NCBI GenBank assembly: GCA_049515915.1
Contig: JBEKTP010000001.1
Location: forward strand, 72,855-132,712
Length of the DNA: 59,858 bases
Direction: 5' to 3'
Origin: Patescibacteria group bacterium
GTDB lineage: Bacteria; Patescibacteriota; UBA1384; UBA12157; JAENIV01
This document shows, piece after piece, positions 1 to 48,396 of this stretch. Position 1 is the first letter of the stretch; every line of letters begins with the position of its first letter. Under the pieces are notes generated by a model, which made no database searches, had not been told where the DNA came from, and saw only the letters and a list, made by a program, of their open reading frames with translations. A program made the position numbers and the translations under genes.

Positions 1-312
1 CCTGACCGTTTGATCCAATCCCGTCCAACCGCGTTTTTCAACTAACACTTGCCAAAAAAATTTACTCTCATTTAAAACAGGAATAAATCCCTCTTGATCA
101 CTTACGGCAAGCTGACGAATCTGGCCGATAATCTCAGTAACCTCACTGAAGTATTCTTTATCTCCCGGTCTTTCGTCTTTTTCGATTCGTTCTTGCATCT
201 GAGCTAATGTTTGGTCTAATTCCTCTTGTGCCCTCGCTGCTTTTTCTTCATTGCTTAAATTTACTTCACTTGCTCCGAGATCTTTTGATTCTGGTTTGGG
301 AATTTCATTCAT
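1..312 (-). CDS. hypothetical protein, partial (runs off window)
   Basis: ATG at 312 after purine-rich RBS (AAAGGAAA); open to base 1: MNEIPKPESKDLGASEVNLSNEEKAARAQEELDQ...; absent from the ORF track because incomplete. Confidence 0.7.
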   Translation of the reverse strand, partial: MNEIPKPESKDLGASEVNLSNEEKAARAQEELDQTLAQMQERIEKDERPGDKEYFSEVTEIIGQIRQLAVSDQEGFIPVLNESKFFWQVLVEKRGWTGLDQTVR

Positions 313-395
313 AATATTTTCCTTTCTTTTTTATCTTAACTAATGATAATCCTTTGGTCAACCAGGCAATTTTAGGATCGACGTTATTACTCCAC

Positions 396-425
396 CAAAA
401 AGAAGCCCTTGCGAGCCTCTTTTTG
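396..425 (-). terminator. Rho-independent terminator closing the 16S transcript
   Basis: minus strand AAAAGAGGCUC-GCAA-GGGCUUCUUUUU. Confidence 0.8.
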
Positions 426-463
426 AAAATTTAATCTGGAAGAAACATTTGTTTTAAACATTC

Positions 464-490
464 CTTTCAGTATTTTTGTGGTTGCAAGAA
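464..490 (-). other. 3' arm of 16S precursor processing stem (partner 3039-3065)
   Basis: 27-nt inverted repeat with 3039-3065, 25/27 paired, flanking the 16S gene. Confidence 0.8.
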
Positions 491-647
491 ACGCTGACTA
501 TAACACAATCATATCTCCGCGATCGACACTATAATCCCTTGATTCACGCTTGCGCGCTTCACTCGGGACCTAGGTGTTTACTCCCTAGAAAGGAGGTGAT
601 CCATCGCCAGATTCCCCTAGCGATACCTTGTTACGACTTAGCCCTCC

Positions 648-1232
648 TCACCGACTTGGCCGTGTCCCGCATTCGCGGAATTCGGGCCCCGCCGACTCGG
701 CTGGCTTGACGGGCGGTTTTTTCAACCTGTTAATGTTACCATTAACAGCCGAAACACCACGGGGCAAGCGGTTTTCCCGCACCCTCGCGGTTACTGTCTT
801 TTTTCCATCTATTCTCATTCGTTGCTGGTATTTACGAAATTTTTGTATGCCTCTTGGAGTAAGATGTTCTTTCTTGGCAACGGCCTCTACCGCCTGACAA
901 AAAATTCTAAAACTTTTTGCCTTTTTGGCCTGTAAAGGATATTTTCGAAAAAAAGGTATTAGTTTTTCTTGAAAATCTTGGAGTTTCTGGATTTTGTATT
1001 TGACATGGGGATGCCAACCATATCTTTCGTAATTCAATTCGTATATATTGCCACATCCTAATGTCTCTCGAATTCTTTCCAGAATTTGTCTGTCATCAGC
1101 CCTCAACTCGATTTCAAACTCTAATTTGATTTCTCGACGATTCTTTAAAGTTTTATGCTGACCGATACTGATGGCAAAACATCCTTCTCCATCGATAAAC
1201 CCCGCAACATAATGGGGATTAAGTTTAGACAA
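648..1232 (-). CDS. intron-encoded single-motif LAGLIDADG homing endonuclease
   Basis: YVAGFIDGEGCF motif, FEIELRADD...LGCGNI pattern; ORF track start 1403 and ATG 1259 lie in ribozyme domains, so TTG 1232 after AAGGAG is the likelier start; stop TGA 650-648 is in the 16S exon. Confidence 0.9.
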   Translation of the reverse strand: MSKLNPHYVAGFIDGEGCFAISIGQHKTLKNRREIKLEFEIELRADDRQILERIRETLGCGNIYELNYERYGWHPHVKYKIQKLQDFQEKLIPFFRKYPLQAKKAKSFRIFCQAVEAVAKKEHLTPRGIQKFRKYQQRMRIDGKKTVTARVRENRLPRGVSAVNGNINRLKKPPVKPAESAGPEFRECGTRPSR

Positions 1233-1615
1233 TTTTGCTCCTTCCTCCGACTGAAACATCGGAGTACTATGAGCGCTGCAGACTTCTTGTATTACATTAA
1301 TAGGCTTGCGCTTTACTTTACCTCGAGTATAAATAACCCTCGAGGATAATACAAGATCTCCCTTGGTCATAAAAATACCATTCTTCACTATCTCGACACC
1401 CATATATTATTGAATCATTAAGTCTGCAAATCGCTTCTCCATGCACACGGAGGATCGCGCGGATTCAATAACCTTCGAGTATTCAAGCTAGCAAATGCTA
1501 CTTTCACCCTTCGCCTAGAAAGTCACCTTTCATTAGACTGTGATTTCGCTTTTTCCGGTTTGCAGGCCGGAAAGTTGGTTTCTCAACCAACTGGCATTTT
1601 TACGGCAAGGCGCCA
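718..1615 (-). mobile_element. group II (IIC-like) intron in 16S between E. coli C1397 and A1398
   Basis: exons join as GUACAC|ACCGCCCGUC; D1 closing helix CGUAAAAAUGCCA/UGGUAUUUUUAUG; EBS1 loop GUGUGCA (1448-1442) pairs with exon end UGUACAC; IIC-type D3 motif AAGUCUGCAGCGCUCAUAGUAC; D5 with CGC triad (756-791); D6 hairpin (720-754). Confidence 0.9.
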
Positions 1616-2032
1616 GTGTACAAGACTCGAGAACGTATTCACCGTGGTGTGCTGACCCACGATTACTAGCGATTCCAACTTCATGAGGGCGAGTTGCAGC
1701 CCTCAATCTGTACTGGGGTGGTTTTTGAGAGATTAGCTTAACGTTACCGTTTTGCGACTCTTTATATCCACCATTGTAGCACGTGTGTTGCCCAGGACGT
1801 AAGAGCCACGCTGATTTGACGTCATCTGCACCTTCCTCCGTATAAACTACGGCAGTCTCCTGTGAAAATTAACACAGAATACAGGTTGCGCTCGTTGGAC
1901 CACTTAAGGCCACACTCTACAGCACGAGCTGACGACAACCGTGCAGCACCTGTCTTAGGGTTCCGTTTCCGGCACGAGTCTATTTCTAGTCTCTTCCCTA
2001 GATGTCAAGTCCTGGTAAGGTTCTTCGCTTAT

Positions 2033-2067
<35 letters not shown>

Positions 2068-2070
2068 AGT

Positions 2071-2110
<40 letters not shown>

Positions 2111-2193
2111 TCCCAGGCGGCAGACTTAACGCGTTAGCTTCGCTACAAGAAGGGTCGATACTTCTGATAGCTAGTCTGCATCGTTTACGGCGT

Positions 2194-2227
<34 letters not shown>

Positions 2228-2874
2228 ACGCTTTCGCATCTGAGTGTCAGGATAACCTAGCAAGCTGCCTTCGCCATTGGTGTTCTTCCCGATATCAACG
2301 CATTTCACTGCTACACCGGGAATTCCGCTTGCCCCTGCTATCCTCAAAGATTTCCAGTATCGAACCCCGAACCGCAGTTGAGCTGCGGGCTTTGAAGTTC
2401 AACTTAGAAATCCACCTGCATGCGCTTTACGCCCAATAAATCCGGATAACGCTCGAGCCCTACGTATTACCGCTGCTGCTGGCACGTAGTTAGCAGGCTC
2501 TTATTCTTAGGGTACCGTCACAATCGTCCCCTAAAAAAGAAGTTTACACCCCGAGGGGCGTCTTCCTTCACGCGGCGTCGCTGCGTCAGACTGTCGTCCA
2601 TTGCGCAATATTCCCAACTGCTGCCACCCGTAGGTGTATGGGCCGTGTCTCAGTCCCATTGTGGCTGGTCAACCTCTCAGTCCAGCTACCCGTCGAAGCC
2701 TTGGTAGGCCATTACCCCACCAACAAGCTGATAGGAACAAGGCCGATCTTATCCCGCCGGAGCTTTACTCTTGCGAGACTATGGGACATTAACCCACCTT
2801 TCGGCGGGGTATTTCCCGGGATAAGGCACGTTCCTTGCTATTACTCACCCGTTCGCCACGCTCTTACGAGCGTA

Positions 2875-2932
<58 letters not shown>

Positions 2933-3038
2933 AAAATTGTTATGAGAATCTAGATTGCTCTAGATAAACATCTGACTTAGATTTCTTTTATTTCTAATCT
3001 TAAAGAAAGGAGTTTTTTTACTTCTATTACCATAGAAG

Positions 3039-3065
3039 TTCTTGCAACCGCAAAAAAACTGAAAG
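3039..3065 (-). other. 5' arm of 16S precursor processing stem
   Basis: CUUUCAGUUUUUUUGCGGUUGCAAGAA complementary to 464-490. Confidence 0.8.
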
Positions 3066-3259
3066 TATTTCGTTTTTTTACGATTTATTGGTTCGCACAT
3101 TCGATATTACGTTGTTAAAGTTCATGCCATCAAAGACAATCAAAAAAATTCCTGACAGTCGGAATTTTTGTGACTATCTTCGATACATTTTTAACGTTAT
3201 ATTGTTAAAAACTTTTCTCCATCAGCAAAACTCCTTGGAACTTATCACAGCTCAAGCTC

Positions 3260-3288
3260 ATCATAAAATATTTCGTGATTGATGTCAA
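3260..3288 (-). promoter_or_regulatory. sigma70-type rRNA promoter
   Basis: TTGACA-17 nt-TATGAT upstream of the 16S leader. Confidence 0.75.
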
Positions 3289-3310
3289 GAGCCTATATGT
3301 TAGTGGTTTA

Positions 3311-3327
3311 AGAATCAGGAATGAGGA
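3311..3327 (-). repeat. cassette 1 terminal helix, 3' arm
   Basis: UCCUCAUUCCUGAUUCU pairs fully (2 G-U) with 4430-4446; homologous to 22628-22646. Confidence 0.8.
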
Positions 3328-3720
3328 GGGGACGCGGGTGCGTCCCCTCGGTATGGAACGAGCAAAAGACTTGCTCGAGGATTTTATGTGCGGGCGCGTG
3401 TAGGTGCGCGCCCGCACTTTGCCTGTAACGAAATCTTCAGTTTTCACACCGGTTCGGTGTGTGTCAGCCGGAAGAGCATTCTCCTTCCACAGCAGTTTGT
3501 GCGACAACGAAAACGAATATGAGCCGAAGCTCGGGACTTGTGGTCGGATGGGCGCCGCTGCGGGTGAGACGTTGGCGCCCATCCTAGTTGTTGGCCACGC
3601 TATTTGGGGTTTACAAGGAACAGAACAACGTAGCGTGGGTCCATCTTGTACAGAGGCCCGCTTTCTCCTCTCTCTCACGGCCTATCGATAGGCCGAAGCC
3701 TAAGTTTCGTCAGAATAGCA
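3326..3720 (-). ncRNA. putative structured ncRNA downstream of tRNA-like gene 1
   Basis: series of strong hairpins: 3326-3349 (10 bp), 3360-3376, 3388-3417 (11 bp), 3445-3461, 3521-3532 and 3689-3702 (both cUUCGg on minus strand), 3546-3584 (11 bp), 3595-3638; no credible ORF. Confidence 0.65.
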
Positions 3721-3721
3721 A

Positions 3722-3808
3722 TGGCCCCGGCGGGATTCGAACCCGCGATATCCGTCCCGGGTCACTGCTGTGGCCCAGTAGCCTTAGGCCAAACTAGGCG
3801 ACGGGGCC
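3722..3808 (-). tRNA. tRNA-like gene 1 (87 nt), anticodon undeterminable, no encoded CCA
   Basis: acceptor GGCCCCG/CGGGGCC+A, D arm GCCU/AGGC, T arm GCGGG-UUCGAAU-CCCGC; anticodon arm CUGGG/CCCGG encloses 12 nt (CCACAGCAGUGA); 10-nt variable region. Confidence 0.75.
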
Positions 3809-4003
3809 CGTCATGTCATACAGTAGTGCCAGCGTGATTGAAAGATCCGGATCCACTTCCCTTACCGATTCACACCACGCCAGCCCTGGATCCATCTCAC
3901 CCGGCACCAGCAATCCAGCACGGTTAGATGGAAACATCTCTGCTTCCCTCGCCGCTTTGCCTGGCTGATAGTGCTTATGCACGACTGGCAGAAACCCCGC
4001 CAT
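3794..4003 (-). CDS. small hypothetical protein (69 aa); stop codon lies inside tRNA-like gene 1
   Basis: AAGGAGG 5 nt before ATG; last 15 nt overlap the tRNA 5' end. Confidence 0.6.
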   Translation of the reverse strand: MAGFLPVVHKHYQPGKAAREAEMFPSNRAGLLVPGEMDPGLAWCESVREVDPDLSITLALLYDMTGPVA

Positions 4004-4029
4004 CGTCGCCTCCTTTCAACCCTTTCTCT

Positions 4030-4113
4030 TTATCCCACCCAGTTGAAAGTCAGCCCCACCAGAATGATGGTAGCCATCAGAATTCCAAGCAGAACATCCT
4101 CCAGCTTCTTCAT
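4030..4113 (-). CDS. 27-aa hydrophobic peptide MKKLEDVLLGILMATIILVGLTFNWVG
   Basis: GGAGG RBS; ATGA overlap with upstream ORF; below ORF-track cutoff. Confidence 0.55.
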   Translation of the reverse strand: MKKLEDVLLGILMATIILVGLTFNWVG

Positions 4114-4205
4114 CGCCGTTTCCTCCGACTCCGGTAGATGACAATGGCTGGAGACGCCATAAAGAGGAACCATGCAACTGCCAACAGCCAGTGATACCAT
4201 TTCAT
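4110..4205 (-). CDS. 31-aa membrane peptide with basic tail MKWYHWLLAVAWFLFMASPAIVIYRSRRKRR
   Basis: AAGGAGG 5 nt before ATG; below ORF-track cutoff. Confidence 0.6.
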   Translation of the reverse strand: MKWYHWLLAVAWFLFMASPAIVIYRSRRKRR

Positions 4206-4217
4206 CGCCGCCTCCTT

Positions 4218-4436
4218 TCAGTCATCGACTCCGAAGAATGCAGCTCCAACTTCGCGGCGCCAGGCAACGGTGTGCCAATAAGCTCGATCGGCATCGGCTT
4301 CATCTTCAGAACGACTTGCCAGATCTGCTCTAATTGCATGATGTAATGCGATGTCTCTGGCCGTCACCCCGTACTCACGAAACCGGCTTTGGACATGATC
4401 CAGTTCGTTCATTATCAGATCCCCTTTCTTCCTCAT
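4218..4436 (-). CDS. small hypothetical protein (72 aa; alternative start 4412)
   Basis: ORF track; GGAGG before ATG 4436 and AAGGGG before ATG 4412. Confidence 0.6.
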   Translation of the reverse strand: MRKKGDLIMNELDHVQSRFREYGVTARDIALHHAIRADLASRSEDEADADRAYWHTVAWRREVGAAFFGVDD

Positions 4437-4446
4437 TCCTAATTCC
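4430..4446 (-). repeat. cassette 1 terminal helix, 5' arm
   Basis: GGAAUUAGGAAUGAGGA; homologous to 23152-23170. Confidence 0.8.
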
Positions 4447-4585
4447 CTCCTGCGCCCTTACTGAAAAACCTATTACAAAGTGTACTTTCAGTGCGGGCTA
4501 TGGAGAGCAAGCCAAATTTTTAAGTTGCAATATTTTCTTTTGTATTTTGTATTTTTGTATCGAATTTTTTGTAGTTTGTAGCAGT

Positions 4586-5206
4586 TTAACTTTTTATCAC
4601 TTGATCGACAATTCCATATTTCTTAGCCTCCGCGGCGGTCATATAGAAATCGCGGTCGGTGTCTTTTTCGATTTTGGCGATTGTCTGACCGGTATGTTTG
4701 GCTAAAACTTCATTAATCGCTTTTTTGATCCGTAAAATCTCGCGCGTTTGGATTTCGACGTCGGTCGCTTGGCCTTCGGCCCCGCCCATCACTTGATGAA
4801 TCATTACCCGCGCGTTCGGTAAAGCGTATCTTTTCCCCTTTGTGCCGGCCGCGAGCAATACCGCGGCGGCCGAAGCCGCTTGACCGATACAAATCGTTTC
4901 CACATCCGGTTTGATGTACTGAATCGTATCGTAGATCGCCATGCCCGCCGAAACCACCCCACCAGGTGAGTTGATATAAACGGAAATATCTTTTTTCGGG
5001 TCTTCCGATTCCAAAAACAAAAGTTGGGCCATAATCAAATTGGCGACATGGTCGTCAATCGGCCCACCCAAAAAGATAATCCGGTCAACCAAAAGCCGAC
5101 TATATATATCATAGGCGCGTTCACCAAACTGGGTTTTTTCCACCACCATCGGCACCAGATATTGATTGATAATTTCCTTTTTATTAAGAGAACTTTTTTC
5201 GTTCAT
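4586..5206 (-). CDS. clpP: ATP-dependent Clp protease proteolytic subunit
   Basis: [30 protein letters not shown] motifs. Confidence 0.98.
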
Positions 5207-5222
5207 TAATACCTCGACGTAA

Positions 5223-5251
5223 ATTATACTTTACATTCGAGCGTTTGTCAA
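5223..5251 (-). promoter_or_regulatory. consensus sigma70 promoter of clpP
   Basis: TTGACA-17-TATAAT. Confidence 0.8.
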
Positions 5252-6117
5252 ATCAGAAAAGAACGATAAGTATCCTTGAGAGTCTTTTCTAAACTGATCT
5301 TTGGCTGCCAGCCGAGTTTTTTAATTTTAGTGCTATTGACGCAATTTTTAGTGATGTCTGACAGCCTTATCCGTTTTAGGTCAGGTGCGGTTTTAATTTT
5401 CTTTTTCGAGATGGCGATGATCTTTTTTAAAACTGATTTCATCGAGACCGGATGACCAGGACCGATATTATAGAACTCGCCGGTTTTTCCCTTTTGCATC
5501 ACCATTTTGTAAGCTCGCACGCAATCGCGAACATCGAACAGATCTCTTTTAGTCTCCAGGTTGCCGACCGCGATTTCGCCGTTATCTTTGGTAGCCGCAA
5601 TTTCAAAACAAAAATCCGGCACGGCAAAACCAGGTTTCTGACCCGGACCAGTGTGGTTGGTGGCCCGCGTAATCACAATTTCAAGATTATCGCCATGATA
5701 CTTTTTTGCTTCGACTTCCATCTTTAATTTGCTTTGGTCGTAAAAACTTCCAGGTGAGGTCGCGGCATTTTCTTTGGCACAAGTCGACGTATTACCATAA
5801 ACATAAGCGGTGGAGGCCAGCAACACTTTGCAGGGTTTTCCGATTTCCTTTAAGGCCCTCAAAATATTGAGAGTGCCCTCGACATTAACTTCAAAAATTA
5901 AATTCTTATCTTTGCCGGCCCCGGAAGCAAACCCAGCTAGATGATAAACTTGATCCGGTTTAATTTTTTTTAAGTAAATTTTTACTTGTGAAAATTTGGT
6001 GATGTCGGCTTGCGGACGATCGAGCCGGTAAATTTTATCTTGACTACGCCCTAAAAGTTCAACTAAATATTTACCAACAAAACCGTCAGAACCAGTGACA
6101 ACAATTTTCTTTTTCAT
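5248..6117 (-). CDS. NAD-dependent epimerase/reductase, GDP-4-keto-6-deoxymannose reductase (Rmd)-like
   Basis: TGSDGFVG, YxxSK, NHTGPGQ, RDLFDVRD; adjacent to gmd. Confidence 0.8.
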   Translation of the reverse strand: MKKKIVVTGSDGFVGKYLVELLGRSQDKIYRLDRPQADITKFSQVKIYLKKIKPDQVYHLAGFASGAGKDKNLIFEVNVEGTLNILRALKEIGKPCKVLLASTAYVYGNTSTCAKENAATSPGSFYDQSKLKMEVEAKKYHGDNLEIVITRATNHTGPGQKPGFAVPDFCFEIAATKDNGEIAVGNLETKRDLFDVRDCVRAYKMVMQKGKTGEFYNIGPGHPVSMKSVLKKIIAISKKKIKTAPDLKRIRLSDITKNCVNSTKIKKLGWQPKISLEKTLKDTYRSFLI

Positions 6118-6118
6118 C

Positions 6119-7159
6119 TCAAATCCTAAAATTTTGCAGGGTGTCTAAATCTCTTTTTACTCGAGTAGTCAGATGATTTCTCACGTCACTTTCAACCATC
6201 ATTTTAACCAGCTCTTCAAAATCTACTTTCGACTTCCAGCCCAGTTTCTTTTGGGCCTTCGTTGGATCAGCTCTTAAATCCATCACCTCGGCCGGTCTCA
6301 TAAACTTCTGGTCGATTTTAACATATTTTTGCCAGTGATCGATATCAGCCGCCTTAAAAGCAGCGATGACAAAATCTTTAATCGTATGATTGACGCCGGT
6401 CCCCACCACGTAATCATCAGGCTTGTCTTGTTGTAAGATCAACCACATCGCTTCGACATAATCGCCGGCAAAGCCCCAATCTCTCTTAGCCTCTAAAGTA
6501 CCGAGCCTTAACTCCTTAGCCAAACCTAACTTGATTTTGGCCACCCCATCGGTAATTTTTCGAGTGACAAATTCTAAGCCACGGCGTGGCGATTCGTGAT
6601 TAAATAAAATGCCGCTACAAGCAAAAAGGCCATAACTTTCTCGATAATTCACGGTGATATAGTGGCCAAAAACTTTTGAGACACCGTAAGGCGAGCGAGG
6701 ATAAAAACGGGTTTCTTCATTTTGCGGCGGTAAAGCCGCGCCAAACATCTCCGAAGAAGAAGCTTGATAAAACTTCGCTTTGGAACAAACCTGTCTCATC
6801 GCTTCTAAAACTCTTAACACCCCCAGACCGGTATATTCACCCGTGGAAAGCGGTTCGCTCCAAGAACCTTTGACAAAAGATTGGGCGGCTAAATTATAAA
6901 TTTCGTCCGGCTGAATTTCAGTCATAATACTAACCAGCGATGACTGATCCCCCAGATCGCCGTTGACAATATGAATCTGATCTAAAATATGAGCAACGCG
7001 TTCAAGATTTTGAGTGCTGGTCCGGCGAACCATTCCATAGACTTCATAGCCTTTGGAAAGTAAAAACTCGGCTAAATATGATCCATCTTGACCAGTTAGC
7101 CCCGTGATTAAAGCCCTTTTTTTCTTATTCGTCTCCCCTTTCCTTTGATTTTCGGGCAT
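6119..7159 (-). CDS. gmd: GDP-mannose 4,6-dehydratase
   Basis: [39 protein letters not shown]. Confidence 0.97.
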
Positions 7160-7204
7160 TTTTATCCTCCTGTAAGTTAGTCCTTAGTAAATCAAAATTA
7201 TCAG

Positions 7205-7233
7205 ATGTTAAGAGAACTGGCAAGTTCTGTCAA
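7205..7233 (-). promoter_or_regulatory. gmd-rmd promoter with palindromic operator in the spacer
   Basis: TTGACA-17-TAACAT; AGAACT-N4-AGTTCT at 7213-7228. Confidence 0.6.
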
Positions 7234-7266
7234 GGACACTATCGATTTTACTCAGGGAGTACTAAT

Positions 7267-8451
7267 TTATTTTGTCGCCAAACTTATTAATTTTTCGAGA
7301 GCTTTTTTACCCGCTTCTTTATCCTTAGGATCAATCTTTTCAGATTTCACTATCTCTCCTAAAGCCAGACCAATTTTAATCGTACGTTCTGCTTGAGGTC
7401 TCAAACCTTCCTTAAATTCATCCAAACTTTTTTTCAAATTTCCAAGATATTGTTCAAACGTTAAACCAAACATCGAAACGCGCGAACGCATTTCATTGAC
7501 TTCGCGTTCAATTTCTTGCTTAATCAGACTTTCCGGCACGTCAACTTTAACCATCCGCAGCAATCCTTCCAAAACTTCATTTTCGATTTCTTTACCTTCT
7601 TTTTCTCTTTTTTGTTTGATAATATCTTCCGCGATCGATTTTTTAAGCTCCGGAACCGAGGGTTTTTGAAATTTTTTGGCAAAATCGTCGTTAATTTGAG
7701 GCAGGATGACTTTTTGTGTTTCTAAAACTTCCACTTTAAAATCTATTTTTCGCTTTTTATCTTCAGGTTTCGGCGACATTTCTAAACTAAATTCCTTTTT
7801 TTCACCCTTCTTAAGACCGATGAGTTTTTTTTCAAACTCGGGGATTAAAACTTTACTGCCTAAGATAACCGGATAATTTTTGCTTGATAAATTCTCGAGC
7901 TTGATCCCTTTTTCAAAGCCCTCAAAATTCATTTCCAGACGATCACCTTCTTCTAGCGGACCTTCAAAAGATTTAAAGTCGGACTGCTGCCGCGCAAGAT
8001 GTGAAATTACTTGCTCGATTTCTTCGTCACTGGCTTTGAAATTTTTAGTTAATTTTTTATGAGCCTTAATTTTCGTATAATCGCCCAATTCCACTTTCGG
8101 CAGCAAATCAATTTCTGCCTCGTATTCAAGTTCGGCCGTATCGGCCGTCAAATCTTTAAGCATTTTAATATTGATAACGGGCGGCGCAATCGGCAATAAG
8201 TTCTCTTTTTTTAGCGCTGAAGGATAACTTTCCTGCAAGGCCAAATCAACAATCTCCGAGTTAATTCGGTTTTCACCAATGGCCGAAAGAATCATCGAAC
8301 GCGGCGCGCTGCCGGGTCGAAAACCTTCAATTTGGACTTGGGGCGCGAGCTTTTTATAGACACGATCAAAAAAACCTCGCATTTCCGGCGAAGATAATTT
8401 TATCGTCAGCTTGGCTTTGGATTTCGGCAGTAATTCTTTTCTTATTTCCAC
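7267..8451 (-). CDS. tig: trigger factor
   Basis: GFRPGSAP ribosome-binding motif, FKBP-like middle domain; GTG 8451 is the likely start (track 8502). Confidence 0.95.
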   Translation of the reverse strand: MEIRKELLPKSKAKLTIKLSSPEMRGFFDRVYKKLAPQVQIEGFRPGSAPRSMILSAIGENRINSEIVDLALQESYPSALKKENLLPIAPPVINIKMLKDLTADTAELEYEAEIDLLPKVELGDYTKIKAHKKLTKNFKASDEEIEQVISHLARQQSDFKSFEGPLEEGDRLEMNFEGFEKGIKLENLSSKNYPVILGSKVLIPEFEKKLIGLKKGEKKEFSLEMSPKPEDKKRKIDFKVEVLETQKVILPQINDDFAKKFQKPSVPELKKSIAEDIIKQKREKEGKEIENEVLEGLLRMVKVDVPESLIKQEIEREVNEMRSRVSMFGLTFEQYLGNLKKSLDEFKEGLRPQAERTIKIGLALGEIVKSEKIDPKDKEAGKKALEKLISLATK

Positions 8452-20612: not shown

Positions 20613-22571
20613 TTATCTAAGCCTCAATTTTTTAAGCTGAATAATCTCGTCACGCAAAATCGCCGCCCGCTCGAATTCTAAATTTTGAGCCGCTTTTTTC
20701 ATTTCGATTTCTTTAAAACGGATCGCCGCCGGCAAATCTTCGATTTTTTCTAAGTCAATAAATTCTGGGGTGACTTCGGGCCTGAGTTCATGATCGATAA
20801 TACTCTCGATCGTCTTTTGAATAGTTTTCGGTGTAATATGATGTTTTACATTAAATTTTATTTGTTTAGCCCGCCGGCGATTAGTTTCGTCAATCGCTCG
20901 TTTCATTGAGCCAGTCATATTATCGGCATACAAAATGACCATACCGCGAACATTTCGCGCTGCCCGGCCGATAGTTTGAACCAACGATACATCCGAGCGT
21001 AAAAATCCCTCTTTATCCGCGTCTAAAATTGCGACTAAGGAAACCTCCGGCAAATCCAAGCCTTCGCGCAATAAATTCACCCCGACCAAAACATCAAATT
21101 CACCTTTGCGCAAATTTTCCAAAATTCCCACTCGATCCAAAGTGTCAACTTCGCTATGCAGATATTCGGCACGCACGCCAATTTCTTTAAAATGGTCTGA
21201 AAGTTCTTCGGCCATTCTTTTTGTTAAAGTAGTAACTAAAATTCTCTCCTCCGCTTTGGCGCGTTTTTTGATTTCTTTGGTTAAATCATCGACTTGTCCT
21301 TCGATTGATCTTACTTCGACTTCTGGATCAACCAAACCGGTCGGTCGGATAATCTGCTCGACAATTTGTTTCGAATGTTCCCTCTCAAAGCTTGCTGGCG
21401 TCGCCGTGGTATAAATAACTTGATTTATTTTGGTCTGAAATTCCGGAAATTTTAACGGCCGGTTATCTCGAGCCGATGGTAAACGAAAACCATGTTCAAC
21501 CAGCGAATCTTTTCGCGATTTATCGCCCTCAAACATTCCCCGAAGCTGAGGAATAGTCACGTGTGATTCATCAATAATCATCAAAAAATCTTCGGGGAAA
21601 TAATCAATCAACGTATAAGGCGCTTGACCTTCTTTTCGGCCGGTCAAGTACCGCGAATAATTTTCAATTCCGGCGCAATAACCGATTTCACGAAGTAGCT
21701 CCAAGTCGTAACGCGTCCGTCGTCGCAGTCTCTCCGCCTCCACAAATTTCCCCCTTTTTTCAAAATAAGAAACCCGCTCTTTTAGTTCTTTTTCAATGGC
21801 CATAATCGATTTTTGCATCGTCGGTGATGTAACCACGAAATGCTTGGCGGGATAAATCATCAGTTTTTTTTCATCATAAAGTTTTCTCATCGTGACAGCC
21901 TCAAAAACCGTGATTTTAGTTAGCCAATCTTTCTCAATTTCGATCCGAATAATAACTTCTCGATCGGCCGGCATAATTTCAATTGTTCCGCCATGAACTC
22001 TAAATTTCCCGCGAGATAAAATTTCAGAGCGTTCAAAATACATTTCAACCAAACGATTAATAATATCCTCGCGCGCAATTTCCTCGCCCACCGCTAAATT
22101 TAAATGACTTTCGCGATAAACTTCCGGACTACCCAAACCATAGATACACGAAACCGAAGCGACGACAATCACATCGCGCCGCGCCAGTAACGCCTGGGTA
22201 GCGGCATGGCGCAACCGATCAATTTCTTCATTAATTTCAACATCTTTTTCAATATAGATATCAGTGTTCGGCATATAAGCTTCGGGTTGATAATAATCGT
22301 AGTAGGACACAAAATATTCGACGGCACTTTCCGGAAAAAAAGTGCGAAACTCAGAACAAAGCTGGGCCGCCAAAGTTTTATTGTGAGCGATAACTAAAGT
22401 CGGCTTTTGAACTTTTTCAATCACATTAGCAATGCTAAAAGTTTTACCCGAACCAGTCACACCCAATAAAGTCTGGTGTTTAAAACCTTTTTTGATACCA
22501 TCAACCAATTTCGATATCGCCGCCGGCTGATCCCCGGCCGGCTTGAATTTTGAGGAAATCTTAAAATCCAT
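20613..22571 (-). CDS. uvrB: excinuclease ABC subunit B
   Basis: GVTGSGKT, YYDYYQPEAY, DESH, QTIGRAARN, C-terminal UVR domain. Confidence 0.98.
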   Translation of the reverse strand: MDFKISSKFKPAGDQPAAISKLVDGIKKGFKHQTLLGVTGSGKTFSIANVIEKVQKPTLVIAHNKTLAAQLCSEFRTFFPESAVEYFVSYYDYYQPEAYMPNTDIYIEKDVEINEEIDRLRHAATQALLARRDVIVVASVSCIYGLGSPEVYRESHLNLAVGEEIAREDIINRLVEMYFERSEILSRGKFRVHGGTIEIMPADREVIIRIEIEKDWLTKITVFEAVTMRKLYDEKKLMIYPAKHFVVTSPTMQKSIMAIEKELKERVSYFEKRGKFVEAERLRRRTRYDLELLREIGYCAGIENYSRYLTGRKEGQAPYTLIDYFPEDFLMIIDESHVTIPQLRGMFEGDKSRKDSLVEHGFRLPSARDNRPLKFPEFQTKINQVIYTTATPASFEREHSKQIVEQIIRPTGLVDPEVEVRSIEGQVDDLTKEIKKRAKAEERILVTTLTKRMAEELSDHFKEIGVRAEYLHSEVDTLDRVGILENLRKGEFDVLVGVNLLREGLDLPEVSLVAILDADKEGFLRSDVSLVQTIGRAARNVRGMVILYADNMTGSMKRAIDETNRRRAKQIKFNVKHHITPKTIQKTIESIIDHELRPEVTPEFIDLEKIEDLPAAIRFKEIEMKKAAQNLEFERAAILRDEIIQLKKLRLR

Positions 22572-22627
22572 ATGGCGATATCATACCATATTTTTACAAA
22601 AAAATCTATTATTGATGAAATTAGTTC

Positions 22628-22646
22628 TAAGAATTAGAGATGGGGA
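22628..22646 (-). repeat. cassette 2 terminal helix, 3' arm
   Basis: UCCCCAUCUCUAAUUCUUA pairs with 23152-23170 (18/19). Confidence 0.8.
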
Positions 22647-22910
22647 GCGAGCCTCGCCGGCCGGCGGGGCTCGCGATAAGAGGATAAGAGAGAGGTGGGC
22701 GCCGGACCACAGCCAGTCTGACGCCCTCAAGATGGCACAAGTTGGGGTGGTGGGGGGGTGTCGACTTGAGCCTCCCTGATTTTAACCTCTCAAAGTTAGA
22801 GGGTGCGAGGGATATTTGGGTAGGGAGAACCCATTTATCCACAATGCCCTGGATCTTGGCTATTCACTCATTGACGCCGCTTCCCTTTTCGGACACTCGC
22901 ACCCAAATCA

Positions 22911-22986
22911 TGATAGGAACTTTCGGATTCGAACCGAAGAGCAACCATTAGCTACCGCTTGCTCTTCCATCCTAAGCTAAGTCCCT
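22911..22986 (-). tRNA. tRNA-like gene 2, degenerate anticodon arm, ends AUCA
   Basis: acceptor AGGGACU/AGUUCCU, D arm GCUU-AGGAUGGAA-GAGC, T arm UUCGG-UUCGAAU-CCGAA; anticodon loop UAGCUAA lacks U33; weak anticodon stem with G.G mismatch. Confidence 0.7.
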
Positions 22987-23035
22987 ACCCGACATAAGAG
23001 GAGAGGACCTTGCGGTCGAAACATCAGAGAGGCTT

Positions 23036-23158
23036 TTACCACAGGACGTAGCCCAAGTTACGCGTGACAAAAGGCCTGTCTGATTTAGTGTTTCCCATCA
23101 ACACGGACAAGGGCCTTGGGGCTAACCCGATCAGATAGCTCTCCTCACTTTTCCTCAT
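23036..23158 (-). CDS. possible 40-aa ORF within cassette 2 (MRKSEESYLIGLAPRP...)
   Basis: ATG lies inside the terminal-helix motif as in cassette 1, but no SD and it overlaps a structured domain. Confidence 0.2.
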   Translation of the reverse strand: MRKSEESYLIGLAPRPLSVLMGNTKSDRPFVTRNLGYVLW

Positions 23159-23170
23159 CTCTAATTCTCA
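23152..23170 (-). repeat. cassette 2 terminal helix, 5' arm
   Basis: UGAGAAUUAGAGAUGAGGA. Confidence 0.8.
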
Positions 23171-23193
23171 ACGTACGATATTGTAATATCACC

Positions 23194-23221
23194 ATTATAG
23201 TCTCAATTGGCGACGTGTCAA
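23194..23221 (-). promoter_or_regulatory. consensus promoter driving cassette 2
   Basis: TTGACA-16-TATAAT; GATATT-AC-AATATC palindrome just downstream; no substantial CDS before uvrB. Confidence 0.8.
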
Positions 23222-23231
23222 TTACTCATCC

Positions 23232-23274
23232 TTAAACAAAATCCCCTTCGTCTATGGTCAGGGATTTTGTTTAA
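23232..23274 (-). terminator. terminator of the rpsB...proS operon
   Basis: TTAAACAAAATCCC / GGGATTTTGTTTAA 14-bp inverted repeat. Confidence 0.7.
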
Positions 23275-23283
23275 ATTTATAAA

Positions 23284-23520
23284 TTATTCGGTATCCACCG
23301 GGGGTTCGTCATCTCCCGGTTTATTTTCACCAGTCTCATCATCACTTTCGCCATCGGTTATTTCGGCTTCGGGATCTTTAACCGCCGGTGTTTCAAGACT
23401 TCGAGCCATCGGCGCTTCCTCGCCTTCGCCGGTTTTTTCCACCGCGCCGCCGGACGCATCTTGGGTGCCATCGTCATCATCGTCACTAACCAAATTCGCG
23501 TTTGGGTCTTGGTAATCCAT
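23284..23520 (-). CDS. small acidic, probably disordered protein (78 aa)
   Basis: AAGGAGG 5 nt before ATG 23520; very D/E-rich. Confidence 0.75.
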   Translation of the reverse strand: MDYQDPNANLVSDDDDDGTQDASGGAVEKTGEGEEAPMARSLETPAVKDPEAEITDGESDDETGENKPGDDEPPVDTE

Positions 23521-23581
23521 TTTAACCTCCTTGTTCACTATTTTGTTCTTACCAATTAAATTCACTCCCAAGCTTTCGAGA

Positions 23582-24799
23582 TCATCGTAACAATTCGGCT
23601 ATCACTTCGTCAACAGCCAAAATCTTAGTTTCTTTTTCGGTCCTTTTTTTGACTTCAATTTTCTCGCCGGTTTTTTCACTAACAACTAATCGATATGGAA
23701 TACCTAAAAGATCGGCGTCGGCAAATTTAACACCGGCGGCGGTTTCGCGATCATCATAAAGAACATCAAGACCACTTTGAACCATTTTTTCATAAACTTT
23801 ATCGGCCTTTCCGTCAGTTAAATCAATCAAAACAGTTTTAAACGGCGCAATCGATTCCGGCCAAATAATGCCGTAGTCATCGTGCGAGACTTCCACGATG
23901 GCCGCCATCAGCCGCGGGATGCCAATGCCATAGCAACCCATAATAAAATTCTTCATCTTGCCGTCGGAGTCAGTAAAAGCGGCGTTCATTTTTTTGGAAT
24001 ACAAATCATCGAGCATAAAAATGTGCGCAATCTCAATTGCTTTAAGTGATTTGACTGCCCCGCCGCAGGATGGACATTTGTCCAAATCGGAAGTCAGCTC
24101 GACATTGACAGCGTAATCGCAGGCGCCGCAGATATAAATTGTATTTTCACCGGTTTCAGAAAGGAGCATAAATTCATTCGATTTCTTGCCGCCAATCGAG
24201 CCTGAATGAGAGCTGACAAGATGAACGTCCCGCCCCATTCGTTTGAATATTTTTCGATAAGCAATAATGACTTTTTCATAATAAGCTTCAAACTCTTTTT
24301 GATCAGCGTGAAAACTATAGGCGTCCTTCATCAGAAATTCTTTGGTTCGTAAAAGCCCGCCGGTAAAACGCTGTTCGTTGCGAAACTTCGTCTGAATTTG
24401 ATAGAGCATTTGCGGCAATTCCTTAAAGGAAGAAATGCGGTCCTGAACCAAATCGACAATGACTTCTTCGTGCGTCGAACCTAACGCTAATTCTTTATCG
24501 TGGCGGTCCTTAAGTTTAAGTAAAGGTGGATCCATCGTATTCCACCGGCCTGATTCTTCCCAAAGCTCTTTTGGCTGCAAAGCCGGCAGGAATATTTCTT
24601 GGCCGCCGATGGCATCCATTTCCTCCCGAATAATTTGTGAAATCTTAGTAATAACTCGCCAGCCGAGCGGCAATAACGAATAAACTCCGCTCATTTCCTG
24701 ATCGATATAACCGCCACGCAATAACAAAGCTGAGGAGATATTATCGGCCTCCTTGGGTGTTTCACGTTGAGTTTTAATTAAAGATTTAGAATACCTCAT
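23582..24799 (-). CDS. proS: proline--tRNA ligase, short form without INS editing domain
   Basis: THEE, FRNEQRF.GGLLR.KEF.MKDAYSF, MGCYGIG, GVKFADADLLGIP. Confidence 0.95.
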   Translation of the reverse strand: MRYSKSLIKTQRETPKEADNISSALLLRGGYIDQEMSGVYSLLPLGWRVITKISQIIREEMDAIGGQEIFLPALQPKELWEESGRWNTMDPPLLKLKDRHDKELALGSTHEEVIVDLVQDRISSFKELPQMLYQIQTKFRNEQRFTGGLLRTKEFLMKDAYSFHADQKEFEAYYEKVIIAYRKIFKRMGRDVHLVSSHSGSIGGKKSNEFMLLSETGENTIYICGACDYAVNVELTSDLDKCPSCGGAVKSLKAIEIAHIFMLDDLYSKKMNAAFTDSDGKMKNFIMGCYGIGIPRLMAAIVEVSHDDYGIIWPESIAPFKTVLIDLTDGKADKVYEKMVQSGLDVLYDDRETAAGVKFADADLLGIPYRLVVSEKTGEKIEVKKRTEKETKILAVDEVIAELLR

Positions 24800-34439: not shown

Positions 34440-34470
34440 ATGTTTTACTGTAACCCAAGGAGCGCAGACG

Positions 34471-35304
34471 ATGGCAAAAAAGCATCGTGGAAGGCCGGCT
34501 CTTAATGCGGCCGCTGTCTGGCGTTGGATTGTCAATGGCATTCTCGAGATCGAACCGGTTCGACGAACACCGGCCTTCATTCTCACGAAAGGCAAGTCTG
34601 TTCGGCAACGATGGGTTCGCCGGCGGCGCGGTCAGATCGAAACGGCCACTGCCGTCACCTATCTCCGCCTCGGAACATTCCTGGTACCACGGTGGTTTGC
34701 CGTACCGAACTGGCGGGTCGCGCATCTTAAGGAGCGAGGCTTGGATAACCGGATCCACGGCTACGCCACCTTTAAAGGACAACTAAAGGAACTCTGTTAC
34801 ATGCAGGTAGACGATCTCGACCACTGCATGCGACAGCAAGTCTATGTCCTCGAGGGCTACGAGCATCCTGGAAAGCCAATCATGAGTGACTTCATGGCGC
34901 TGATGGATCGCCTGGCGCGAATCGAGGCGATCACCGGACATATCGCCAGCCGCAAAGCCGGTGTCGACAGTCTCCACACCCTAACACTGGCGCGGCTTCG
35001 ATCCCTTCGACGATCGCTCAGCTCAATCGTGGTGAATGCGCCAACCTTTCAGGGCGACACCGATGAAAAAAAGCGACAAACAGTTTTGGCTGCACTCGAG
35101 AAAGTATCGCGGGAATGCGGAGCAATTGCTATGAGACCGCTGGGCCGGCGGGCTCGCCGCGCCAGCCGTTCGCTTCGGCGCGCGGTCGAGCACATCAGAA
35201 CTGGTCGACTGAAACTCGCCCGCGTGAGAATCATTTCGGCCTACAACAACCTCGCATATCCGTTGTCAGAGGAAAAGATCCTCGACAGGTTAAAGCGAAT
35301 ATGA
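34471..35304 (+). CDS. orphan Arg-rich protein (277 aa)
   Basis: AAGGAG RBS, own promoter and terminator, GC-rich codons. Confidence 0.75.
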   Translation: MAKKHRGRPALNAAAVWRWIVNGILEIEPVRRTPAFILTKGKSVRQRWVRRRRGQIETATAVTYLRLGTFLVPRWFAVPNWRVAHLKERGLDNRIHGYATFKGQLKELCYMQVDDLDHCMRQQVYVLEGYEHPGKPIMSDFMALMDRLARIEAITGHIASRKAGVDSLHTLTLARLRSLRRSLSSIVVNAPTFQGDTDEKKRQTVLAALEKVSRECGAIAMRPLGRRARRASRSLRRAVEHIRTGRLKLARVRIISAYNNLAYPLSEEKILDRLKRI

Positions 35305-47405: not shown

Positions 47406-47509
47406 CTTTCTTTTGCTCTTTTTGATCTTTAATTTTTTATTTATCAATTGTATATTACATTCTATATACCTTTTTGTCAAATCTTTCAACCTTACTCAGG
47501 GTAAATTAA

Positions 47510-47540
47510 ATGACCCGGGCAGGACTCCTGCCCGGGTCAT
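47510..47540 (-). terminator. terminator of GC-rich orphan gene
   Basis: perfect 14-bp stem ATGACCCGGGCAGG/CCTGCCCGGGTCAT followed by UUAAUUU on minus. Confidence 0.75.
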
Positions 47541-47568
47541 TGCGTCCACTGGATCTGATACGTACCGG

Positions 47569-48396
47569 TTAACCCCTTGCTTGCTTTGGGGGTTGAGCGA
47601 TGAAGGCGGCGAGAACAATCTCCTCGCCGTTTTGTCTCACCGCAAGGATATGCCGCTCGGAATCATGATCGAATCGGAGATAGCGGCAGGAATCCACCGC
47701 CACCAACCGGCCGACACCGCGCTTGAGATCTTCCAGATGCGGCGCCCAAAGCGGCGGGTCGAAAACGTAGGTACCCCCGGGCTTAAGCCGCTTACGCATC
47801 GCGCGGTTGATCACTCTGACTTTGATAGACAGTCCGTCCGCTGTCTTGAGAGGGCCGCTCTGAGTCTTGATGAGGCCGTTGGGCATTACGTAGATACGAA
47901 TGCCCTTAACAACCTGGAGTTGGGGAAAATCAGTTGGGTTAAGCTCGATCCCCGTCTCGACAGCCTCAATGGCCGGTTCCTGTTCTGGCGTAGTCGTCGT
48001 CGGCGCGGCGTTCAGCCAGAGTTCGCGCCCGTCGGCGTCCTTGACCCAAGAAATCATGAAGTCATCGAGCACGAGCTCTCGCTCGTCTCCTTCGTAGTAG
48101 AAGTAGAATCTGCTGCCATTCCATTCGATGTACCCTTGTTTGACCCGGTAGATCCCGATATTATGATCGAGCGGCTCGAGAGTCACCAGGTCGGGATGCG
48201 ACCGAGCAATCGCGAACATCACACCGTAGGGCGCCCGTTCGTTGAACCGGAACGAATAACCCCCGTCGTGGAAAAGCTCGAAACCGGCGTGAGACTCGCG
48301 CCGGCTATCCCGCGGTTGCCATGGCTCATCCGATCGCGAACTCCTCGGGAAGAGCTTGTCGACCGAGCGAAAAGTATCGAAAGGGTCCATCAGCAT
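47569..48396 (-). CDS. orphan protein (about 275 aa), GC-rich
   Basis: GAGGAGG RBS before ATG 48405/48396; promoter TTGACG-17-TATATT upstream; own terminator. Confidence 0.7.
   Translation of the reverse strand: MLMDPFDTFRSVDKLFPRSSRSDEPWQPRDSRRESHAGFELFHDGGYSFRFNERAPYGVMFAIARSHPDLVTLEPLDHNIGIYRVKQGYIEWNGSRFYFYYEGDERELVLDDFMISWVKDADGRELWLNAAPTTTTPEQEPAIEAVETGIELNPTDFPQLQVVKGIRIYVMPNGLIKTQSGPLKTADGLSIKVRVINRAMRKRLKPGGTYVFDPPLWAPHLEDLKRGVGRLVAVDSCRYLRFDHDSERHILAVRQNGEEIVLAAFIAQPPKQARG

Follow-up and report, generated by a model that had tools for sequence, protein, structure and literature searches.

Transfer RNA (tRNA)-shaped RNAs without a decoding role have been described among Y RNAs, at viral 3' ends, in organelles and among mammalian long non-coding RNAs, and few bacterial cases are on record. 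Those that form RNA ends include the plant mitochondrial t-elements, the mascRNA of MALAT1, viral 3' tRNA-like structures and an element 5' of archaeal 5S rRNA. In them, the tRNA fold is part of a longer transcript and is recognised not by the ribosome but by RNase P, RNase Z or the CCA-adding enzyme; its acceptor/T half is kept, and the anticodon part can be dispensed with. Among bacterial RNAs, the Mycobacterium smegmatis YrlA RNA has a tRNA-like domain with a 7-bp acceptor stem, which is cut by RNase P and receives CCA, and its authors propose that the tRNA fold shields the RNA from nucleases (PMC4201824). Here we describe a tRNA-like gene on the minus strand of a 59,858-nt stretch of Patescibacteria DNA (the window, i.e. 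the whole stretch that was analysed), located between clpP (5206-4586) and the 16S rRNA gene, together with its relatives at other loci, which are cited by our locus labels (L001 and so on).

By analogy, the element would work most like the processing and stability modules named above and like the tRNA-mimic domain of YrlA. The former share with it a tRNA fold in which the 12-bp acceptor-T stack and the T-loop/D-loop elbow are conserved independently of the anticodon arm. They are, however, eukaryotic, organellar, viral or archaeal, whereas processing is here something we infer, and the Rfam mascRNA model gave the window RNA 16.9 bits against a gathering threshold of 42.5. As in YrlA, a non-coding RNA has its ends paired in a long stem which encloses a tRNA-mimic domain (T arm, D arm and acceptor-like stem) with a non-canonical anticodon-like part; both such end helices of the window have a pair probability of about 1.0 and are in the minimum free energy (MFE) folds, and the helix is conserved in nine elements. 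YrlA, in contrast, is about 100 nt long, lies beside the Ro60 orthologue rsr and carries a GNCGAAN0-1G motif and a Ro60-binding stem, while the present elements are 310-1130 nt long, can hold small open reading frames (ORFs), possess a complete and closed cloverleaf and lie next to housekeeping genes (clpP/16S or an aminoacyl-tRNA synthetase gene/uvrB). A YrlA or other bacterial Y RNA was rejected on the grounds of size, the lack of a nearby rsr and the lack of an Rfam match. No Ro60 (Rsr, TROVE) gene was found among the neighbours of either window element, the rest of the window being unscanned for TROVE, and no Y-RNA model matched at E<=1 in 1-8000, 2900-3900 or 22500-23650, where the GNCGAAN0-1G motif was not searched separately.

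Our preferred explanation, to which we give about an even chance, is that the gene is a non-decoding, tRNA-derived structural RNA module of a family specific to this Patescibacteria lineage, best read as a processing or stability module. We hold the descriptive part of this explanation with considerable confidence; its mechanistic part is tentative and stands somewhat below an even chance. The family is apparently undescribed, as the Rfam searches gave no family for it and the literature search gave no paper linking tRNA-like RNAs to Patescibacteria.

The tRNA-like gene and its relatives

The window gene has the core of an elongator tRNA: a 7-bp acceptor stem, a 5-bp T stem, the T-loop consensus and a GG-containing D loop, AGUUUGGCCUA. 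The initial annotation had described the acceptor, D and T arms as canonical, and the sequence, ARAGORN and Rfam agree on this. Its base-level statements that U33 is absent, that the variable region is 10 nt and that CCA is not encoded (the 3' flank being UUG) were likewise correct, and the ARAGORN call was undetermined as it had expected (tRNA-???, with the four-base anticodon 'ccac'). The Rfam tRNA model (RF00005) gave 39 bits, the gathering threshold being 29. The 12-nt anticodon loop that had been proposed stood in part. CUGGG/CCCGG can enclose CCACAGCAGUGA, but the open loop is only one of several plausible folds, and with -35.3 kcal/mol the least stable of them. Formation of the loop's own CAC-AGCA-GUG hairpin, which had also been noted as foldable, lowers the energy to -40.6 kcal/mol. 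The ARAGORN fold has -36.5 kcal/mol (UACUG/CAGUG with the 8-nt loop GGCCACAG and a long, 16-nt variable arm) and the MFE fold -44.3 kcal/mol. The possible anticodon loops are of 12 nt, 8 nt or the 4-nt AGCA cap, and none has U33. The enlarged anticodon arm would be an insertion peculiar to the window gene, its simplest form being a 5+3-bp hairpin with an AGCA cap.

Twelve further tRNA-like genes of the same kind were found, 11 in related Patescibacteria and one elsewhere in the window. The relatives were collected through the neighbourhoods of ClpP homologues and a metagenome scan anchored on the 16S V1 hairpin of the lineage, which made many clpP-16S intergenic regions available, and their 11 tRNA-like genes all occupy the same place, between clpP and the 16S promoter. 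In the minihelix formed by the acceptor and T stems 99.2 % of the alignment cells are paired, and in 10 of the 12 pairs both sides have changed. No shuffle out of 500 reached this, and slid controls were 45-68 % paired. Acceptor stems include GGCCCCG/CGGGGCC, GCCCCCG/CGGGGGC, UCCCCCG/CGGGGGG, GCGGGGG/CCCCCGC and UCGCGGG/CCCGCGA, and T stems GCGGG, GUGGG, ACGGG, GGGGG and GUCCG with matching partners. These counts come from explicit bookkeeping of the arms on gap-free arm alignments; plain MAFFT alignments, of whole elements as well as of whole tRNA-like genes, were unreliable in the variable parts. The acceptor stem was fully paired in all 10 members scored in the minihelix alignment, the T arms were intact, and GG was kept in 11 of the 12 D loops that were read.

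The anticodon arm behaves differently. Its loop is 4, 7, 8, 9, 10 or 13 nt long across the family, its sequence also differs, and a canonical anticodon loop occurs in only one of 11 members (L096). The tRNA-like genes score 33-50 bits or below threshold with the Rfam tRNA model, compared to 67-73 bits for genuine tRNAs in the same loci. CCA is encoded by the genuine tRNA-Ile and tRNA-Asn of this lineage but is missing from eight of the first nine tRNA-like genes. The combination of intact stems and aberrant loops is the reverse of what neutral decay would leave, and these are accordingly selected, non-decoding tRNA-shaped RNAs. Judged from these alignments, selection acts on the tRNA shape, i.e. 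the 7-bp acceptor stem stacked on the 5-bp T stem, the UUCGAAU T loop and the GG of the D loop, and the anticodon arm is free to vary in both length and sequence, most members having no encoded CCA. The earlier view that the window gene is not a decoder is upheld by the lack of a canonical loop in any fold, the score of 39 against 67-73 bits, the missing CCA and the single canonical loop in the family.

Several kinds of decoding tRNA were considered. Suppressors with 8-nt loops, intron-containing tRNAs, tRNA-Sec and allo-tRNAs share with the present genes the cloverleaf with 7/5 acceptor/T stems, the T loop and the GG of the D loop, and ARAGORN can force an 8-nt loop on the window gene; they differ from them in that here U33 and R37 are missing, loop length varies, CCA is not encoded, the Rfam score is about half and no intron motif is present. 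A canonical elongator tRNA was rejected because of the lack of U33 in any loop, the UUG flank and the low score. An intron giving an ordinary anticodon, which the initial annotation had named as an alternative, was also rejected: the loop exceeds the normal length by no more than 5 nt, its one U, at the 10th of 12 positions, is too far 3' to become U33 by any 5-nt deletion, Rfam finds no intron and the genome is bacterial. To our knowledge, bacteria have no machinery for such mini-introns. A +1 frameshift-suppressing or quadruplet tRNA does not agree with the 8-nt ARAGORN fold, which has neither U33 nor a nucleotide at position 26, or with family loop lengths of 4-13 nt. No transfer-messenger RNA (tmRNA) was found by ARAGORN, and Rfam tmRNA_permuted reached 11.1 bits, the gathering threshold being 47.

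A decaying tRNA pseudogene, or an unusual decoder such as a frameshift suppressor that reads quadruplets through an 8-nt loop, would be consistent with the four-base anticodons that ARAGORN reads in three members (ccac, atac and acca) and with L096, which lies 8 nt from a genuine tRNA-Asn as expected of a tRNA-gene origin. The fully paired acceptor stems and intact T arms beside aberrant loops argue against decay, and the varying loops, the usual loss of U33 and R37 and the unencoded CCA argue against a suppressor. We consider this explanation highly improbable.

Three further observations concern the family. L094 is the only member of the GCCCCCG type followed by an encoded CCA. L081 and L094/L095 have, 3' of the tRNA-like gene, a conserved RNA, UGGGGGUGGGCYUAUGCCG ... 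AAGGUCCCAUCCCCA, the ends of which pair. The viral contig L103 (IMGVR_UViG_3300007072_000340) has, at about 2866-2950 of the minus strand, the same GGCCCCG/CGGGGCC-A acceptor with a CCUUCAA loop and no ARAGORN call; at 63 % GC, this contig probably belongs to an unrelated lineage.

The 10-nt complement of the anticodon arm

The initial annotation had proposed that the enlarged loop docks, by a 10-bp kissing or long-range pairing, on a hairpin 270 nt downstream, which would make the gene an RNA switch or docking module. The match itself was borne out by the sequence: CCACAGCAGU (3773->3764) has an exact complement, ACUGCUGUGG (3496->3487), within the hairpin CACA-AACUGC-UGUG, and each of the two occurs once in the window. 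When the 40-nt anticodon region was compared with ±700 nt of flanks in 2000 dinucleotide shuffles, the probability of a complement of at least 10 nt was 0.017, and of at least 9 nt 0.075. The duplex would have -17 kcal/mol, reaches a pair probability of 0.25-0.29 in the ensemble of the whole cassette RNA (1.16 kb) and has a target adjoining the Shine-Dalgarno (SD)-like GGAAGGAGAAUG, all of which favours docking. Against it, the duplex is absent from the MFE fold of the same RNA, and the 10-mer is largely paired in its own CAC/GUG hairpin in the more stable folds. Furthermore, the chance of a complement of at least 10 nt in one or more of the nine family members tested is about 0.14.

In ten other tRNA-like genes, complements to the own anticodon-arm region within ±700 nt of the same strand are at most 6-7 nt long, the most frequent length in the shuffle null. 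The approximately 365 nt that contain the 10-mer target of the window (3715-3350) have no homologue in any other cassette; in this part the window cassette and its relatives have in common only the 3' half of the tRNA-like gene, the terminal hairpin and the right arm. Homologues keeping the loop and losing the complement had been named in advance as the finding that would count against docking, and with ten relatives at 6-7 nt and a target segment without homologue this is what was found. No consistent target of the loops was seen in the adjacent 16S rRNA or leader either, where chance-level matches lie at scattered positions.

The 10-mer is not conserved, and on present comparisons the match to downstream RNA occurs in the window species only. 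The complement appears to have arisen by chance or to be, at best, a recent feature of that species alone, and repurposing of the anticodon loop for docking is in our opinion very unlikely.

Helix-closed cassettes and the second element

The tRNA-like gene of the window lies in an island of about 56 % GC (about 3290-4460) with sharp borders, the flanking spacers having about 32 % GC. A 16-nt inverted repeat is located exactly at these GC boundaries (4445->4430 and 3327->3312), and the same arms bound elements in L068, L072, L080, L086 (twice), L088 and L109. The arms form a closing helix of 16-20 bp with the consensus GGGAAUUAGGRAUGAGG / CUUCAUYCCUGAUUCUUA, which in the fold of the whole cassette has a pair probability of about 0.99-1.0. 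Over nine elements 96.5 % of the positions are paired and three pairs are changed on both sides, slid controls being 33-59 % paired. Where the two arms differ, the sense strand has G.U in nearly every case and A.C once; this pattern favours a folded RNA or single strand, the counts being small.

The usual order of a cassette is left arm (with SD sequence and first AUG), one or more small ORFs, an optional tRNA-like gene, a GC hairpin, the right arm, a consensus promoter and 16S. The terminal hairpin is nearly identical in L109, and all cassettes have an equivalent. The ORFs include transmembrane peptides, the DPD..IALAL family and, in L086, a thioredoxin-like ORF. The content is modular and dispensable: the site is empty in L110/L111, L068, L088, L089 and L109 have arms and no tRNA-like gene, L108 has an ORF and a tRNA-like gene without arms, in L074 the tRNA-like gene stands alone and is followed by an intrinsic terminator of its own, so that the module can also be an independent RNA, and L086 has tandem cassettes. 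The empty site and the arms without a tRNA-like gene show that the tRNA-like module itself can be dispensed with. Promoters equivalent to the one upstream of the window 16S gene, TTGACA-17-TATAAT, are found in L080 and L089. As the window promoter is downstream of the right arm, the tRNA-like gene and the 10-mer target are outside the promoter-proximal 16S leader; a location in the pre-16S leader was excluded by this consensus promoter and by the L074 terminator.

A second element of the family is present in the window, at 22631-23167 (Table 1), between a gene for a class II aminoacyl-tRNA synthetase and uvrB, with uvrA and uvrC nearby. Its arms pair in the MFE fold and match each other through changes relative to the first cassette, and it has the terminal hairpin. 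Its interior has no sequence in common with any other element, and the Rfam tRNA model gave no match to its tRNA-like domain (22912-22987) even at E<=1. With its paired arms, its own promoter, an internal tRNA-like domain and no ORF, this element shows that the family can also take the form of a self-contained non-coding RNA, here about 540 nt long.

Table 1 Features of the window and of related loci (window positions)
Feature	Position	Strand	Remarks
tRNA-like gene, 87 nt	3722..3808	-	ARAGORN, Rfam RF00005, alternative folds
Acceptor stem	3808-3802 / 3729-3723	-	GGCCCCG/CGGGGCC
Discriminator A (A73)	3722	-	
D arm	3799-3781	-	GCCU-AGUUUGGCCUA-AGGC
Hypervariable 'anticodon + variable' region	3780-3747	-	
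T arm	3746-3730	-	GCGGG-UUCGAAU-CCCGC
10-mer CCACAGCAGU in anticodon-arm region	3764..3773	-	mostly sequestered in the CAC-AGCA-GUG mini-hairpin of the more stable folds
Exact complement ACUGCUGUGG	3487..3496	-	in small hairpin CACA-AACUGC-UGUG
Species-specific GC-rich RNA	3350..3721	-	between tRNA-like gene and terminal hairpin; several strong hairpins, no Rfam match
Terminal GC hairpin GAGGGGACGC-ACCC-GCGUCCCCUC	3326..3349	-	immediately 5' of right arm
Right arm of closing helix UCCUCAUUCCUGAUUC	3312..3327	-	pair probability about 0.99-1.0, in MFE fold
Left arm of closing helix GAAUUAGGAAUGAGGA	4430..4445	-	holds AUG of first small ORF, GGAGG just upstream
Small ORF 1, 72 amino acids (aa)	4218..4436	-	GGAGG ribosome-binding site (RBS), no family match, called as gene in other assemblies
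Small membrane-peptide ORFs	4030..4205	-	31 aa at 4205-4110; 56 aa at 4200-4030 or nested 27 aa; GGAGG-type RBS each
Small ORF, 69 aa, 'DPGLAWCESV..DPD..IALAL' family	3794..4003	-	C-terminus replaced at junction
Predicted 16S promoter TTGACA-17-TATGAT	3260..3288	-	11/12 matches, downstream of right arm
Second element of the family	22631..23167	-	about 540 nt, no ORF, stops in every sense frame
Second element, left arm GAAUUAGAGAUGAGGA	23167-23152	-	
Second element, right arm UCCCCAUCUCUAAUUC	22646-22631	-	
Second element, weak internal tRNA-like domain	22987-22912	-	ARAGORN 'tRNA-Ser gct'
Second element, promoter TTGACA-16-TATAAT	23194..23221	-	12/12 consensus matches
L072 tRNA-like gene			8-nt loop AUAUACAG; ARAGORN 'atac'
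L080, L086 (two, tandem cassettes), L093, L074 tRNA-like genes	clpP-16S		
L084 and L096 tRNA-like genes			long stem capped by (U)ACCA(A)
L081, L094/L095, L108 tRNA-like genes	clpP-16S		

These features also recall mobile DNA. Correia elements are dispersed and bounded by inverted repeats, and the hairpin transcribed from them is bound or cleaved by RNase III, which alters the expression of neighbouring genes (PMC2649163). The cassettes share with them, and with miniature inverted-repeat transposable elements, the terminal inverted repeats, the dispersed copies and the occupied and empty sites. Correia elements are, however, about 100-155 bp long and without cargo, while the present arms enclose 0.3-1.1 kb of variable cargo (small ORFs, the tRNA-like gene or other structured RNA) and have mismatches that are G.U on one strand. 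The arms could be terminal inverted repeats that belong to a non-autonomous mobile element or a cassette system, with the tRNA-like gene as a constant backbone or tRNA-derived recombination hot spot for the exchange of ORF cargo. Supporting this are at least two copies at unrelated loci within 60 kb and the tandem pair in L086, empty and occupied sites downstream of clpP, mosaic and unrelated interiors, the shared end AAGUAGUAGCC of two different ORFs immediately before the tRNA-like gene, a window ORF truncated 16 nt before that gene, the fossil clpP 3' end in L080, and TTAA flanking several arms, although TTAA is itself palindromic and is missing at some left ends. The ability of Correia elements to be RNase III substrates as well (PMC2649163) is compatible with such an origin. 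On the other hand, no transposase or integrase was found in or beside any element examined, the acceptor and T stems keep their pairing through two-sided changes, which suggests that selection acts on a folded strand rather than a DNA site, the arm mismatches are nearly all G.U on the sense strand, and the tRNA-like gene occurs without arms in L074 and L108. We regard this DNA-level explanation as rather unlikely, yet as a serious companion hypothesis which could hold alongside the RNA module.

The 69-aa ORF extends 15 nt into the tRNA-like gene, its stop being a UAG in the D loop. Its homologues normally continue ('...DPD.EIALALSR.IR..') and are followed by more small ORFs, not by a tRNA-like gene, and homology of the region to relatives extends only to about 3824, which leaves 16 nt up to the tRNA-like gene. 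The protein family (about 66-69 aa, conserved EAEMFPSNRA...GEMDPGLAWCES.RE.DPD.EIALAL) occurs in L005, L007 and L008, with tandem paralogues in the latter two. It has no Pfam or PHROG match and only three diverged homologues among 5.8 billion proteins, and Pfam and PHROGs gave nothing significant for the small proteins of the island in general.

Some cassettes have further peculiarities. The two of L086 (minus strand, about 1800-480 nt upstream of 16S) each have their own arms and tRNA-like gene, the first containing the thioredoxin-like ORF, and sequence upstream of each left arm (AGCCGUUGGUUUACCC...CGAAGGUGGGAAUUAGG) is repeated. A structured-looking RNA of about 120 nt, GCCCGUGCGACCGGAU...GGGAUA...CCUGCGG...ACCCAGGC...GGGUUGAU.CCG.GGGUAUUCC, recurs in three cassettes (the second of L086, L093 at 217-330 and L109 at about 5210-5330), directly 3' of the tRNA-like gene in two of them and without an Rfam match. 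In L080/L099 a fossil clpP 3' end (…KYGIIDQVIKS*) follows the functional clpP stop by about 50 nt; it looks as if the original gene end had been replaced by an insertion. In L110/L111 the beginning of the 16S gene is partly duplicated: an incomplete copy of its 5' end (UUUGAGAGUUU...GAUCCUGGCUACG), which about 45 nt interrupt, lies about 330-460 nt after clpP and directly ahead of the real start.

The window as a whole has about 43 % GC and the character of a compact bacterial genome with nearly all genes on the minus strand; those of its ClpP homologues that have a source name are from Patescibacteria, and L001, L002 and L083 are the same species, with an identical region. The ClpP of the window is present in 62 assembly blocks, and samples carrying the organism include ERZ27250060 and SRR7027865. 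The neighbours of the cassette are clpP, sugar epimerases, trigger factor and 16S. The 16S rRNA gene (minus strand, 2938 to about 585) has shortened helices and its true 3' end, GGAUCACCUCCUU, near 590. An insertion of about 1 kb (about 600-1570), which encodes a LAGLIDADG endonuclease (648-1403) and has an Rfam match to group-II-D1D4-1 at 1238-1320, splits this gene near its 3' end, and group I introns and other insertions occur in the related 16S genes of L080, L093 and L072. At 34450-35300 and 47500-48200, two more stretches have 56-60 % GC, and both of their strands contain long overlapping ORFs.

Wider searches gave no further members. A scan of species-representative genomes for the D-arm...T-loop pattern returned 59 loci and no homologue of the window tRNA-like gene, the loci being ordinary archaeal tRNA-Arg (with intron), tRNA-Leu or tRNA-Ser, or tRNA-Ser/Sec of Chloroflexota. 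Three scans of viral contigs found unrelated phage tRNAs only, and blastn of the island against phage records found no match; to judge from these searches, the island has no phage link. Rfam at relaxed thresholds, applied to the island, the second element and eight related loci, could assign neither the downstream RNA nor the arms nor the recurring 'motif-2' RNA to a family.

Possible role of the modules

The modules are found towards the 3' end of small accessory cassettes or within non-coding RNAs, the two ends of which pair in the conserved helix of 16-20 bp. As processing or stability modules they would be recognised by enzymes that read the tRNA shape and are blind to the anticodon, namely RNase P, RNase Z or trimming exonucleases, and the CCA-adding enzyme. 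Such recognition would give the cassette RNA a defined processing site, a nuclease-resistant end or both. RNase III is a candidate to cut the terminal helix, which could also hide the start codon of the first ORF.

Several points weigh against this explanation. Processing by RNase P, RNase Z and RNase III is purely our inference. The global fold of the whole cassette RNA misses the cloverleaf, the acceptor having a pair probability of 0-0.05. Covariation of the arms is modest, 10-38 of 500 column shuffles reaching the observed values, and is equally expected for DNA terminal inverted repeats that coevolve. The members may not all be orthologues, since L096 looks like tRNA-Gly (G1-C72, C2-G71, G3-C70, U73, ACC); if they represent different tRNA isotypes, part of the 'covariation' is a difference of isotype. 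The 10-mer of the window, with P = 0.017 and a duplex in 25-29 % of the ensemble, makes a private function in the window species possible. Finally, loops are conserved within subgroups in which the stems covary (GAAGUACAU in L080 and the second cassette of L086, and YGAACGUAR in L081 and L094), which hints at a sequence-specific partner that a pure shape module does not explain.

This last observation bears on two other proposals. The tRNA-like RNA might be charged, or bound via its conserved loop and acceptor, and act away from the ribosome: it could donate aminoacyl groups, serve as decoy or sponge for an enzyme or toxin that binds tRNA, or be a protein scaffold in the style of Y RNAs. In addition to the subgroup loops, many members with A73 have an NAC-A motif (UACA or CACA), which we take to resemble valine anticodons; L096 has the full bacterial tRNA-Gly identity set, L094 encodes CCA, and YrlA is a precedent for a tRNA-like domain in a stem-closed RNA. 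However, most members have no CCA although the genuine tRNAs of the lineage encode it, neither Ro60/Rsr nor another dedicated partner gene lies beside either window element, no Rfam Y RNA or YrlA model matches at E<=1, and the loop motifs differ between subgroups. Such a role seems to us quite improbable. The second proposal is an undescribed class of modular RNA, in which a conserved terminal helix closes a variable interior with room for small ORFs and other structured RNAs, the subgroup-specific loops of the non-decoding tRNA-shaped domain, conserved in sequence, contact a dedicated protein or an RNA in trans, and the 10-bp pairing of the window is a version of this in cis; this we consider unlikely.

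No report of non-decoding tRNA-shaped RNAs in the candidate phyla radiation was found in the literature. The present family combines strong covariation with a clear pattern of selection, in which the shape is kept and the anticodon arm is free. Natural controls are at hand in the empty sites, the cassettes with and without the module and the standalone gene, and they make the role of the tRNA shape outside translation directly testable in these reduced genomes. The family is also of practical concern. As tRNA finders label such genes 'tRNA-???', tRNA-Ser, tRNA-Tyr or tRNA-Gly, tRNA sets and inferences of codon reassignment are inflated or distorted by such miscalls for metagenome-assembled genomes of Patescibacteria.

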